A stretch of 47,651 nt of DNA from an uncultured Thermoplasmata archaeon (GTDB taxonomy: Archaea > Thermoplasmatota > Penumbrarchaeia > JAEHCK01 > CBDVCJ01), in contig CBDVCJ010000001.1 of the NCBI GenBank assembly GCA_965372445.1, positions 1-47,651 on the forward strand, written 5' to 3'. The notes under the pieces are model-generated. The model had not been told where the DNA came from. It ran no database searches and saw only the letters and a program-made list of their open reading frames with translations. How positions within the stretch are numbered: position 1 is the stretch's first letter; each line of letters opens with the position of its first letter. Shown piece by piece: positions 12,988-39,183 of this stretch. The position numbers and the translations under genes were made by a program.

Positions 12988-13992
12988 GTGTTTGTTCACT
13001 TTGGTCGAGGGGGATTTTGTGTGTATCCAAATTATTATGAACCGAGGACCGTCAAAGGTCTAAAATACATTAATCTTGCCTGGATTTTATATATTGTCGC
13101 TTTGGTAATATTATTGATAATGTTAATTGTGCTGATCCCTGTTCTTATGGAGGCATTTAATGATCCAGATGACTTTGATCCATCAAATTTCGGAATTTTA
13201 TTTGGAATTATAGCTGGTGCTTGTCTTTCTGGACTGTTTTCCCTTATTGTTGTTATACTATTTCTTATCGGAATTATATATATGTTGACAGGCCGCGAGG
13301 AATTTGGACCTCAACATTCAAGCCGTGTAATGTTAGGCTTCATCTTTCTGCTTATCGGTTTCATTATTCCGGTCTTTGGCGGGTTTGGAACGGCATTTAG
13401 TTATAGTGGTTATGGTAGCGCAATATACATAACCTCGGGATTTAGTATCGCGTCCAGCATTTTAATGGCTTTAGGGCTTGTGTTTTTAATTGAAAACCTA
13501 TTAGACGAAAAGTGGAAAAGAATATTATGGACCGGAGGTTTGATCTTTATAATTTTTAGTATAATCGCTGCCGCGATTAATATATGGCTCTTTACAAGCT
13601 TAATCTCTGATATTAGTGACCCAGAGACTTTTTATCTATCTGGTTTTTCGACTTTTACGTTGGTCTCTAGCGGTTTAACGGCAATGAATTTACTACCGAT
13701 CTTTATTTTTCTATTATGCTATCGCCAAGCCGAACAAAGGATCCGCACCGGCGAGCTCAAGGTAGTCCAACCTATGTATCCCCCGCCGCCCCCGCCCTAT
13801 TATTATCCCCCACCGCCGCCCGCCTATTATCCGCCACCTGCTTATGGCTATCCGCCACCTGCTTATGGCTATCCACCGCCAGCAGTCCCACCCAGCGGGC
13901 CTCCGGGCACGCCCCGCAAATGCCCGTCGTGCGAGAAAGAAGCACCACTCGGCATCCCAAGATGCCCGAATTGCGGGTTTTACTTCGGTTAA
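12988..13992 (+). CDS. Polytopic membrane protein with PPxY-rich tail and C-terminal zinc ribbon
   Basis: 334-aa ORF with a GTG start in the track (start uncertain) and multiple TM segments. The tail is PPPPPPYYYPPPPPAYYPPPAYGYPPPAYGYPPP, followed by CPSC-x11-CPNC. Confidence 0.7.
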   Translation: MFVHFGRGGFCVYPNYYEPRTVKGLKYINLAWILYIVALVILLIMLIVLIPVLMEAFNDPDDFDPSNFGILFGIIAGACLSGLFSLIVVILFLIGIIYMLTGREEFGPQHSSRVMLGFIFLLIGFIIPVFGGFGTAFSYSGYGSAIYITSGFSIASSILMALGLVFLIENLLDEKWKRILWTGGLIFIIFSIIAAAINIWLFTSLISDISDPETFYLSGFSTFTLVSSGLTAMNLLPIFIFLLCYRQAEQRIRTGELKVVQPMYPPPPPPYYYPPPPPAYYPPPAYGYPPPAYGYPPPAVPPSGPPGTPRKCPSCEKEAPLGIPRCPNCGFYFG

Positions 13993-14020: not shown

Positions 14021-14482
14021 GGTCCTGAGTCCGTAGTCCTGCGTCCGATAAGTTGTGAGTGTTCGTGAGACTGTTTTTATATTGCAAAAGAGCGTAGGAT
14101 TGTTTCAAGAATACCATAATGCGTCGGATATGATGTCTTTTAATAGATGCGTGGGAGCTCCATTTGATTGCTGAGGGCGTTGGATTGCTCAAATAAACAA
14201 TAATCGTGTGAATCAAACGAAAAAACACTCGAACGCATTAAATTAGTCAGTAGGCAATCCAACAAATCAATTAAATGGCATTCAGGTCCCACGCCAATGA
14301 AAATAACTTGACGCTCCTACGCAATTTGGCAAACAGTTAACAATCCAACGCATATAGGTGAAATTTTATCTATCCCACATAATGACAATGTTACCACAAA
14401 CTCACAACTATATGGGCTCCCTGGACTCCCAAGACTCTTTCGCCTATCGCCCTTCGCCTTTCTCGTGGCAAACTCCAATCTT
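14021..14482 (+). repeat. Family-B phased inverted-array element, copy B1
   Basis: The core is bounded by AGTTGTGAGT (14051-14060) and ACTCACAACT (14400-14409). Forward cores start at 14065, 14094, 14123, 14151 and 14179. Reverse cores start at 14229, 14258, 14287, 14315, 14344 and 14373. Outer layers are a GAGTCC-type array (14021-14049 vs 14412-14437), a TTTCGCC array (14437-14465) and GCAAACTCCAATCTT (14468-14482). Confidence 0.9.
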
Positions 14483-14491
14483 GAAAAAAGA

Positions 14492-14953
14492 TCAGATGAT
14501 ATGTCCAACGATATCGGTCTGTTCTCGGTCACAATAAAAACAATTTAATCTGATCGGATCTTTTGAGGTAACAACACATTTACTCCCTATAGGTTCATTC
14601 TTGTTCGAAACGCAGTTCGGGTTCTCGCATTTCACTATACCCTCAATTATAGCCGGGAGCTCTACCTTATGCTTTTTCTCGACATTGAAATTACGGATAA
14701 TATTGAAAGTGGCATTTGGGGCAATTAACGCGATCTTATCAAGTTCATGAGGGTCCAATTCCCGATCCTCGATCTTGACAATATCTTTTTTATCCATTTT
14801 AGCTTTGCCGGAATCGACGTACATTGCCACACTAACGATCGACTCCTGTTTGCCGGTTATCCCAAGTATCTTCAACACTTTCAGTGCCATTCCTTTTTCG
14901 ATATGGTCTATTACGGTACCATTTTTTATGGGTGTAACTTTGAATTCTTTCAT
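14492..14953 (-). CDS. pyrI: Aspartate carbamoyltransferase regulatory subunit
   Basis: 153 aa. N-terminus is KVTPIKNGTVIDHI. The zinc domain is CENPNC...CFYC. Confidence 0.93.
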   Translation of the reverse strand: MKEFKVTPIKNGTVIDHIEKGMALKVLKILGITGKQESIVSVAMYVDSGKAKMDKKDIVKIEDRELDPHELDKIALIAPNATFNIIRNFNVEKKHKVELPAIIEGIVKCENPNCVSNKNEPIGSKCVVTSKDPIRLNCFYCDREQTDIVGHII

Positions 14954-17587: not shown

Positions 17588-17986
17588 CTATTTCTTATTA
17601 GGCTTTGAACCCCTTTTCGTGCGTTTTGGGGCTTTTGAATGTTTGTCCAATTCATTTTCTATTTGAGCCAAATTATTATTGGAATTTTTGCCGGATAATA
17701 ATTTATTACGGATCCCTTCTTCGATTCTTGCAAGAGTATCGACATCGATCTTTTCGATACGCTCGATCAAGCTCTGCTCGAATATTATTGCCATATATTG
17801 CTGTGTGAATATAACCGCTGAAAAAATTGCAGCGACCGCCAAAAACACGAAACCGATCACACTATCAGGAAGAGACGTAACTAAATAAATGGTATATACG
17901 AAAATAACTGCCATCAGTATAACAAATTCGCTCACTAATTTTAATCCTTCAGAGGATTTGGCTGTAGTGTCTAAGGTGTTTTGCAT
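17588..17986 (-). CDS. Small membrane protein (2 TM) with Lys-rich C-terminus, function unknown
   Basis: 132-aa ORF with two hydrophobic helices and a coiled tail. No recognisable family. Confidence 0.55.
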   Translation of the reverse strand: MQNTLDTTAKSSEGLKLVSEFVILMAVIFVYTIYLVTSLPDSVIGFVFLAVAAIFSAVIFTQQYMAIIFEQSLIERIEKIDVDTLARIEEGIRNKLLSGKNSNNNLAQIENELDKHSKAPKRTKRGSKPNKK

Positions 17987-18046: not shown

Positions 18047-18543
18047 CCAATAGAAAGGCGAGAGACGATTATTTTAGTCATGGAGTCCGATAAGTTGTGA
18101 GTGTTAGTGGGACTGCTATTGTATTGCTAAATAGCGTAGGATTTTTTTAGGCATGCTATTATGCGTGGGATTGCCATTATAACGATAAAGGGCGTGGGAT
18201 TGTCATTATAACTATAAAGGGTGTTGGTTGCTTAATAAACATTAACCGTTGAAATCATACGAAAAAGCGCCTTAACGCATCAATAAAATGGCATTCAGGT
18301 CCCACGCCTAATGGCAATTCAATCCAAATCCTACGCCTTTTAACATGCAGGTAGTAATCCTACGCATTGTAGCGATGGGTATCTATCCTACATAATGATA
18401 AAAATGCCACAAGTACACAACTCACAACTATTAAGACTCGCGACTCACCACTCTTGACTCACGACCAATTAAACCAAACCATTTAACCTCATTTCGCCTA
18501 TCGCCTATCGCCTATTGCCTTTTCAATAGCAAACTCCAATCTT
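18047..18543 (+). repeat. Family-B phased inverted-array element, copy B2
   Basis: The core is bounded by AGTTGTGAGT (18093-18102) and ACTCACAACT (18420-18429). Forward cores start at 18107, 18136, 18165, 18194 and 18223. Reverse cores start at 18271, 18300, 18329, 18358 and 18386. Outer layers are AAAGGCGAGAGACGA (about 18055-18069) vs (TCGCCTA)x3 (18494-18514), then GCAAACTCCAATCTT (18529-18543). Confidence 0.9.
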
Positions 18544-18589: not shown

Positions 18590-19234
18590 ATGCGTAGATT
18601 TATTGTTATTGGCCACCGCGCTAAAACGACCGGGGACTTCACCCTCAACGATCTCTGTGGTTCCGGCGGGCGTATGGATATATTGACTCGATGCGTTAAT
18701 TCCGCATTTTTTTTGTCACACGATCTCAGGCGCAATGTCGAGCTTAATTTGGTGCTTTGCGGCGGTGAGGCGTCGCCGAAAACAATAAGGCTTGTCGGCG
18801 ACGAGCTGCGGTATTTGAACCCCGACGAACGCAGCACAGGTGCATTACTTAGAAATGCGCTAATGAAATTTAACTCCACTGAAGTTGCTTCCCCCAAAAA
18901 AAGCGATCGGACACAATTTAATGAAATTCGGTCCACACCAGGAATTTTTATTTCAGATCGTGGCTTTCAAGAGGTCGTGGGATCATGTGCTGAAGTTTCG
19001 AGAATAATATACCTTTCCGAAGAAGGTCAGGACATTGGTGATTTTGGACTATCTAAGCAGGATCAAGATCTCACTTTTGTTTTAGGTGACGATAAAGGTT
19101 TATCCGAGCAAGAGGAAGAAATATTACAGAAATATAACCCGATATGTGTTAGCCTTAGTCCGCTGATACTACATGCGGACCATTGCATAATTTTAGTGCA
19201 TCGAGAATTAGATGAAGAGTTTTTGTCTAAATAA
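18590..19234 (+). CDS. trmY: tRNA (pseudouridine54-N1)-methyltransferase (SPOUT, DUF358)
   Basis: 214 aa. The N-terminus MRRFIVIGHRAKTTGDFTLNDLCGSGGRMDILTRC matches the TrmY family pattern. Confidence 0.8.
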   Translation: MRRFIVIGHRAKTTGDFTLNDLCGSGGRMDILTRCVNSAFFLSHDLRRNVELNLVLCGGEASPKTIRLVGDELRYLNPDERSTGALLRNALMKFNSTEVASPKKSDRTQFNEIRSTPGIFISDRGFQEVVGSCAEVSRIIYLSEEGQDIGDFGLSKQDQDLTFVLGDDKGLSEQEEEILQKYNPICVSLSPLILHADHCIILVHRELDEEFLSK

Positions 19235-38684: not shown

Positions 38685-38863
38685 CCAAATAAACTAGTTT
38701 TTTTAGCTCCCATGTTTAAAATTAACATTAAGTAAAGGCGATTTTATTAATAATATTTACTATACCACTTTAAAGTTATTGGTAATATATAAAAGTTAGG
38801 GACTTATGTGATGGCATAAACCTGGATTTAATGTACTAATGTCTGTGGTTAGTAAGTCTAAAA

Positions 38864-39183
38864 AGTTGTGAGTGTCCGTGGGATTGCTATTTTTACGCCA
38901 GAGGATGTGGGATTGCTTTAAGGTTGCCATTTGATGTGGGATTACCATTTAATAACCTGATGGTGTAGGATTGCCATTATATTGATAAAAGACATTGGAC
39001 TGTTTAATTAAACAATAACTTCGTGAATCAAACGAAAAACACTCCAACGCATCAACAAAATGGCAATCAGTTCCCACACCCAATGGCTAAACTTGACAAT
39101 CCTACACAATTTAGCAAATAGTTAGCAATCCTACACCAATGGACGAAATTTTAACAATCCCACTTGGAGCTATTATAACAACT
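38864..39183 (+). repeat. Family-B phased inverted-array element, copy B3
   Basis: The left terminus is AGTTGTGAGT (38864-38873). Forward cores start at 38878, 38907, 38936, 38965 and 38994. Reverse cores start at 39043, 39072, 39100, 39129 and 39158. The right terminus is degenerate (AACAACT, 39177-39183) and abuts the arcS stop at 39185. Confidence 0.9.

Follow-up and report, generated by a model that had tools for sequence, protein, structure and literature searches.

A gene-less foldback element of phased 29-bp units in a Thermoplasmata archaeon and its homology to a gene-carrying PF05635 cassette

The PF05635 protein family was first found in rRNA intervening sequences (IVS), where its function remains unclear (PMC4990558). 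The ORF-bearing IVS of Coxiella burnetii 23S rRNA is 428-444 nt long and is closed by a 28-bp terminal stem that RNase III cleaves; its loop contains an S23p ORF. Mobility of the ORF-bearing IVS of 23S rRNA genes (Coxiella burnetii, Leptospira; S23p/PF05635) has long been suspected and is unproven (PMC4990558). In the literature that we searched, the family is seldom mentioned. The element described here, B1, resembles these IVS in being closed by inverted arms and terminal words and in folding as a hairpin (z = -4.1), and three copies of the same design (C70 in the same assembly, and L054 and L056) hold a small PF05635 four-helix-bundle gene in a loop closed by inverted repeats. It differs from them in its setting, since B copies are intergenic and B1 lies between protein-coding genes rather than in helix 25 or 45 of 23S rRNA. 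The arms are also 130-350-bp arrays of 29-bp units instead of a single stem of ~28 bp, B1 itself is gene-less, and the host is an archaeon. From the sequence comparisons given below, B1 appears to be a derivative of a cassette of the PF05635 (23S_rRNA_IVP, hereafter IVP) kind and not a strict member of it.

Other described repeats share parts of this design. MITEs are miniature inverted-repeat transposable elements (for a review see PMC3184786, as cited in PMC4692102). B copies are MITE-like in being short (300-620 bp), non-coding, intergenic and multi-copy (45 complete and ~20 broken), with terminal inverted words, and in a relationship to a gene-carrying parent that would be one of internal deletion. 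Unlike MITEs, the parent of the B family is without a recognisable transposase, the arms are tandem arrays, and no consistent target-site duplication was found among the copies. Eukaryotic foldback transposons such as Drosophila FB and Galileo have long inverted arms of tandem sub-repeats, the number of which varies by copy and by arm. The B arms resemble them in exactly this respect, although FB and Galileo are eukaryotic, some have a transposase, and no sequence or protein relationship links them to the B family. Heptamer repeat arrays are known from bacteria, with GGGAATC in Xanthomonas and GGGGAYT in Nostoc (PMC4692102). Like these arrays and REP/BIME mosaics, the outer layers of B1 and B2 are intergenic, modular and often arranged as convergent inverted pairs, but they differ in being nested in strict order around a core of 29-bp units and in being tied to PF05635 genes, a link that is mentioned in neither PMC4692102 nor PMC4679880. 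A CRISPR array is ruled out, as the 29-bp units have position-specific remainders that are common to copies and the arrays stand as inverted pairs. In essence, the B family combines an IVS-like cassette with the MITE and foldback kinds in a new form; what is new here is the tie of this family to an IVP cassette and a rule of layer order. B1 is probably a canonical, gene-less and dispersed foldback that derives from such a cassette, has diversified by whole-unit change and lies within layered word arrays.

The window, the whole 47,651-nt stretch of DNA that was analysed, is contig C1 of a 4.04-Mb, 452-contig assembly with 40.6% G+C (G000) and contains three copies, B1, B2 and B3 (Table 1). The PyrB protein encoded in it has 65-74% identity to those of MAGs that are labelled Thermoplasmata archaeon. 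Typed in a 29-nt register, B1 reads IAGKB / CDETFOH, which is the standard form of the family. Its reverse cores are TCCNAC hexamers that start at 14258, 14287, 14315, 14344 and 14373, together with a one-mismatch TCGAAC at 14229, and their spacings are 29, 29, 28, 29 and 29 bp. As the initial annotation had counted, these six cores in B1 stand against five in B2 (~18270, which is degenerate, 18300, 18329, 18358 and 18386) and five in B3 (39043, 39072, 39100, 39129 and 39158). Within B1, AGTTGTGAGT (14051-14060) is perfectly complementary to 14400-14409 (inverted repeat I11, 10/10), and unit D has as its partner the innermost left unit, L1 (GTTGGATTGC / GCAATCCAAC), matching 14179-14188 at 10/10 positions (inverted repeat I14). 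The centres of B1, B2 and B3 hold no ORF, and thus no PF05635 gene lies in their loops. B1 is found between the convergent 3′ ends of an ORF at 12988-13992 (+) and of pyrI at 14492-14953 (-), while B2 is found between the divergent 5′ ends of ORFs at 17588-17986 (-) and 18590-19234 (+), so the two contexts are unrelated, as first described. A database look-up of the genes flanking B1 and B2 gave no exact-protein match.

Table 1. Coordinates of B1, its parts and the related features of B2 and B3 in the window.
Feature	Position	Strand	Description
B1, left GAGTC-type word array	14021-14046	+	GGTCCTGAGTCCGTAGTCCTGCGTCC; read directly; partner of the right GACTC-type array, pairs with 14414-14437 in the DNA fold
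B1, left terminal word (H class)	14050-14062	+	AAGTTGTGAGTGT; at the ends of most copies
B1, left arm	14063-14207	+	five 29-nt forward units I-A-G-K-B (14063, 14092, 14121, 14150, 14179), core GYGTNGGAT; from register print and unit typing
B1, unit C (asymmetric centre)	14208-14236	+	GTGAATCAAACGAAAAAACACTCGAACGC; degenerate core; in the loop of the fold
B1, unit D ('extra' unit of the initial annotation)	14237-14265	+	ATTAAATTAGTCAGTAGGCAATCCAACAA; 29-nt register
B1, right-arm units E, T, F, O	14266-14381	+	starts 14266, 14295, 14324, 14353; reverse cores TCCCAC, TCCTAC, TCCAAC, TCCCAC
B1, right terminal segment H	14382-14410	+	contains ACAAACTCACAACT
B1, right GACTC-type array	14414-14437	+	GGGCTCCCTGGACTCCCAAGACTC
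B1, TCGCC-class heptamer array	14437-14462	+	TRF period 7; without a clear left-hand partner at B1
B1, 15-mer	14468-14482	+	GCAAACTCCAATCTT; first words of the outermost CTCCAAT-class layer
B2	18080-18543	+	I-A-J-J-B / C-(no D)-E-M-F-Q-H plus outer layers
B2, GACTC-type array	18435-18465		
B2, TCGCC heptamer array	18494-18520		
B2, 15-mer	18529-18543		exact copy of GCAAACTCCAATCTT
B3	38850-39175	+	five forward and five reverse units; without unit D, right terminal word and outer layers

B1 belongs to a large dispersed family. BLAST of B1-B3 against the 4.04-Mb assembly finds ~60 loci, and chaining of phased cores gives 115 arrays (56 forward, 59 reverse), which pair as 45 complete forward-to-reverse foldbacks and 0 reverse-to-forward pairs; the unpaired arrays lie mostly at contig ends, where ~20 arrays are broken. 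Arms range from 3 to 12 units across the family, and the copies occur between convergent, divergent and tandem genes alike. Chance cannot account for the phasing of the cores: counts of same-strand GT[GAT]GGA pairs reach 364 at a distance of 29 bp and 84 at 28 bp, compared with ~2 at other distances, further peaks are found at 57/58, 86/87 and 115/116 bp, and a three-core phased pattern has 306 matches where the reversed control pattern has 0. Each unit consists of a 9-12-nt core, GYGTNGGATTG, and a position-specific remainder, with all cores facing the centre and the heptamer words AGTTGTGAG / CTCACAACT closing the ends of the element. A print of the copies in 29-nt register confirms that the units are position-specific and conserved from copy to copy, with the order C-D-E-(M/P/T)-F-(O/S/Q)-H in the right arm of nearly all copies and a variable left arm (IAGKB, IALAGKB, UIALJB, AGWNLJJB and others). 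The asymmetric centre GTGAATCAAACGAAAAA is common to ~20 copies, and this conserved feature makes the element directional. Position by position, the third core base in one arm mirrors that in the other (L1/D GTTGGA, L2/E GTGGGA and L3/R4 GTAGGA, read at 14179-14323 of the window and in family copies), which sets the pairing register and shows the palindrome to be ancestral to the family. The termini of B1 (14043-14129 and 14342-14437) are 88-98% identical to those of 13 other copies, all of which are cut by contig ends. The copies on C278, C445, C300 and C187 are 92-98% identical to B1 as far as 14437, where the near-identity ends, and outside these near-identical termini the GACTC arrays vary in length and sequence.

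Unit D had been taken for an additional unit gained by B1, a view that is reversed when the whole family is considered. Of the 22 typed copies, 17 have the unit, as do all three copies that carry the gene (G000 C70, L054 and L056), and it is missing as exactly one unit only from B2, B3 and the copies on C13 and C208, with a partial deletion of 19 bp in C181. The junction of the deletion falls between the repeated ends of units C and D (...AACG[C/A]A-T, the hyphen marking the junction). By this distribution, B2, B3, C13 and C208 have lost unit D, and B1 has retained the ancestral state. The fold places unit C in the loop and sets unit D opposite the innermost left unit, its pairing partner. When D is gone, that left unit comes to stand opposite C, whose core is likewise of GTTGGA type, so that loss of D makes the loop shorter while five units still face five. 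B2 and C13 group as sisters (support 100/99) and have other derived characters in common; outside this pair the tree of family copies is poorly resolved.

That the arrays change by whole units, as was proposed from B1 and B2, is supported by unit strings, by element lengths and by an orthologous pair of copies, and is limited by a number of non-unit changes. Between unit strings such as IAGKB, IALAGKB and IAJJB, the differences are whole units that have been inserted, deleted or replaced. Lengths were compared without alignment as the distance between the terminal words in 19 elements (300-617 bp). Taken modulo 29, the distances are clustered (R = 0.64, where the null 99.9th percentile is 0.59), and 4 of the 19 lengths are off-phase. 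B1 and B2 measure 357 bp and 335 bp by the same words, a difference of -29 and +7, or one unit less and one heptamer word more. The copy on C70 and its metagenome orthologue (L054/L055) have both flanking genes in common and are 80% identical; the only large indel between them is 58 bp, equal to two units, in the right arm, and the small indels within a left unit (-4, +5) almost cancel, leaving the phase intact. Besides the off-phase lengths, the exceptions are the 19-bp deletion in C181 and a jitter of ±1 nt (28/29/30). Replacement can be followed in B2, whose adjacent forward J units (18163-18191 and 18192-18220) differ at 2 of 29 positions (TRF: period 29, 93% matches), bearing out the near-identity that was first put at about 3 differences. 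The sister copy on C13 reads I-A-G-J-B, with G standing where B2 has its first J, the unit types of both copies having been assigned by hand from their sequences. In B2, therefore, a second J has taken the place of unit G and still has 93% identity to the J beside it. Copies of the family diversify as whole units are lost, duplicated or replaced, most likely through slippage or unequal recombination between conserved cores that lie 29 bp apart.

The origin of B1 is suggested by the copy on C70 (9791-10625), in which a 149-codon ORF lies exactly between the innermost left unit and unit C. This ORF matches PF05635 (23S_rRNA_IVP) with 107.9 bits and also TIGR02436, 'four helix bundle protein', and unit C follows immediately on the 3′ side of the IVP domain. 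An end-to-end alignment of B1 with C70 has 76% identity over 372 nt and matches the two unit for unit (five units on the left, followed by C D E x F O H), and the only large gap, of ~488 bp, corresponds to the upstream region or promoter and the coding sequence of the IVP gene. It is because B1 is gene-less and yet aligns with C70 across this gap that it is placed as a derivative. A ~60-copy archaeal foldback family is thereby anchored unit for unit to a PF05635 cassette. The direction of change is best read as deletion of the gene rather than insertion of a gene into a B loop, such that the B family would derive from the gene-carrying cassette by an internal deletion of ~490 bp. The C70 copy is the only gene-carrying B copy in this assembly, and its locus is unmoved across ~20% nucleotide divergence (C70 compared with L054), so movement of the gene-carrying form is not frequent. 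As further details of these genes, the C70-type IVP ORF (G000 C70:10063-10512; L054:835-1290) does not end with the four-helix-bundle domain but reads on across units C and D to a stop in E, making two 29-bp units coding in the gene-carrying form; the resulting tail reads ...LERIKL..TSTK, and the orthologue of the C70 protein in a related genome (G003) is without it. An upstream motif, AAGGGGGAA, is found ~5-10 nt before the start codon of most IVP genes (C70, C106, C388, C5, C55 and C141; L054 and L058), by which the homology of the cassettes reaches into the 5′ leader.

The association of IVP genes with inverted arrays extends beyond C70. There are 17 PF05635 genes in the assembly, and by eye most are bracketed by an upstream array and its downstream reverse complement. 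When an inverted-repeat score of the flanks was computed for all ORFs, 8 of 14 scorable IVP genes reached at least 13, compared with 1.7% of 2387 other ORFs (Mann-Whitney p = 3e-6); an earlier TRF search for gene-enclosing heptamer pairs was too strict, picking up no more than 4 IVP genes. Across 37 genomes of the class, PF05635 is confined to the four from this order (with 17, 22, 6 and 3 copies) and to one further genome (2 copies), and among 41 genomes (our own and 40 relatives) phased GTNGGA arrays are found only in G000 and G003, the two richest in PF05635. G003 encodes an intact orthologue of the C70 protein, at 68% identity, with forward and reverse arrays of 28-bp units on either side, and its truncated IVP copies lie between arrays with a GACGTGGGATAT core. 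Metagenome IVP proteins that are 86-90% identical to the C70 type lie in B-type arms (L054/L055, and L056 at another locus), a 71% homologue lies in 28-29-bp units with a ATGTTGTAT core, and ~60% identical homologues in bacterial trmD operons lie between inverted arrays of 9-nt words. Across these homologues, the period of the arms follows the protein subfamily while the core sequence drifts. IVP proteins that are ~70% identical stand between different words (GGAGTCA at G000 C19, AGTTGTC at G003 L030), which argues against a simple fixed specificity of protein for word. As a separate observation, the 28-bp units at three G003 loci (L046, L047 and L051, on C110, C47 and C267) are nearly identical within an array, with up to 9 copies of GACGTGGGATATGTCGTTGAGATTTCAG, and such arrays also enclose truncated IVP genes that have in-frame stops; the near-identity of the units, unlike the diverged, position-specific units of G000, suggests that the arrays may have expanded recently there. 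A few small ORFs other than IVP are also enclosed by inverted heptamer arrays in G000 (C192:189-836 and C446:207-684, with 146 aa of no assigned function and 140 aa), and these may represent another kind of cargo or may simply happen to lie between two spacers that bear arrays.

The right flank of B1 had been thought to mark a special relationship with B2. The two copies do carry a GACTC-type array, a heptamer array and an identical 15-mer in the same order, and in the 4.04-Mb assembly the 15-mer occurs exactly only at these two sites, with 85 sites at up to 2 mismatches. The special relationship itself is not sustained, however, as the same layers recur elsewhere. The order of CTCACAAC word, GACTC array, TCGCC array and CTCCAAT words is found at the B copies on C79, C304, C347, C81 and C66, and the same four-layer order is found on C39 and C64, at loci without the 29-bp core; C39:480-1100 forms a complete palindrome in which a different core is flanked on each side by these four layers. 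Genome-wide, the order from the centre outward is 29-bp core, CACAAC, GACTC, TCGCC and CTCCAAT. A both-strand genome scan of the steps gives 53 forward and 1 reverse for B to H, 37 and 8 for H to G, 16 and 0 for G to T, and 17 and 0 for T to A. TCGCC-class heptamer arrays number 216 in the genome. The arrays to the right of B1 and B2 are thus additional layers of a word-array arm of the same kind, their order being fixed across the genome, and this order provides a rule for the assembly of layered intergenic palindromes. The two outermost layers of B1 are without a clear counterpart on the left, since the upstream gene extends to 13992 on that side. Each outer word class also brackets an IVP gene in G000: GGCGAAA / TTTCGCC on C5, GATTGGAG / CTCCAATC on C61 and GGAGTCA / TGACTCC on C19. 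In light of the whole family, one unit more or less and a common flank amount to ordinary repeat dynamics.

How the copies spread, and what the cores do, allows several explanations. Among the B copies of the assembly no transposase, consistent target-site duplication or empty site was found, so that their mobility is putative; the flanks of the terminal words mostly continue the palindrome, with TA on both sides in some copies (C7, C215) and not in others (C24, C22). The gene-carrying partner encodes only a four-helix-bundle protein of ~120-150 aa. Retro-mobility with an Avd-like partner is ruled out, as the genome contains no reverse transcriptase (RVT_1). Mobilisation in trans by a domesticated Y1 (RAYT-like) transposase, as for the hairpin repeats of REP/BIME/REPIN systems, would suit dispersed, modular intergenic palindromes in a genome that has one Y1_Tnp gene. 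That gene (C285:1777-2124) belongs to an ordinary IS200-like insertion whose short GC hairpins are unrelated to the B cores and heptamer words, it is not flanked by B units or heptamer words, and the B arms are arrays of 29-bp units instead of single REP hairpins, and so this model is rejected as highly improbable. The IS200-like transposase gene itself sits inside a large repeat-protein gene. It is also rather improbable that the copies act as RNA, whether through a long, imperfectly paired hairpin transcript that undergoes processing in the manner of an rRNA intervening sequence or in the role of a structured non-coding RNA. B1 and B2 both fold as long hairpins (z = -4.1), and the closest known relatives, the 23S rRNA IVS, are excised by RNase III at their inverted-repeat stem (PMC4990558). 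Against this, the window has no Rfam match at gathering thresholds, rRNA included, the copies occur in all orientations relative to genes, and RNAalifold on 14 copies pairs only the invariant cores, with a covariation term of +0.17 and no meaningful compensatory changes. Conservation falls on the cores, on the direction in which they point and on the distance between them, and not on a stem. This pattern speaks more for phased sites, used by a protein or by a recombination process, than for an RNA or DNA helix under selection.

Such sites could belong to the host. If the copies were protein-binding platforms that serve, for example, nucleoid organisation or regulation, selection would keep the 29-bp phase and the copies would be neither selfish nor mobile. 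The strict conservation of core and phase alongside variable inter-core sequence, the invariably inward orientation, and the recurrence of a GTGGGAT-type core with a 28-bp period in another family of the same order all fit this explanation. We consider it unlikely, since the number of units is free at 3 to 12 per arm, the copies occupy convergent, divergent and tandem gene contexts, recent copying is suggested by the near-identical termini at 13 other loci, and B1 is not conserved at the orthologous pyrI site of relatives. Nor does the genome have a histone-fold protein that could explain a step of ~30 bp, and histone phasing as the cause of the ~29-bp step is ruled out by the same finding. 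Descent of the gene-less foldbacks from an IVP cassette, the reading that we prefer, leads to a candidate partner, the C70-type protein, and a candidate DNA substrate, the GYGTNGGATTG arrays at 29-bp phase; the phased cores would be binding sites, possibly for an IVP oligomer. A wider extension, which we offer tentatively and regard as somewhat doubtful, would have cores and heptamer words alike as loading sites for IVP/Avd oligomers, and the repeat 'onion' as the nested debris of IVP cassettes that inserted into each other's centres in a fixed hierarchy. The heptamer arrays of many prokaryotes, as yet without an explanation, would have the same source, PF05635 cassettes would be cross-domain minimal mobile elements without a conventional transposase, and the B family would comprise their non-autonomous derivatives.

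The immediate surroundings of B1 were also compared. In relatives, the spacer downstream of pyrI is without B1 and is either short or occupied by a different palindrome. The nearest pyrI orthologue (87% amino acid identity) is on the contig L019 (Ga0209536_100294078), which ends 188 bp after the gene and carries at 1846-2033, downstream of pyrI, a CGGGAGT-type heptamer palindrome in place of B1, the same site having been taken by a different member of the repeat vocabulary. On the other side of B1, the ORF at 12988-13992 (+) has no Pfam match. Its product is rich in proline and tyrosine, with CxxC...CxxC motifs at the C-terminal end, and 27- and 21-bp tandem repeats at 13771-13874 encode runs of PPPPYY type. 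Comparable PPGYY tails are also found elsewhere in small membrane ORFs (C29, C269).
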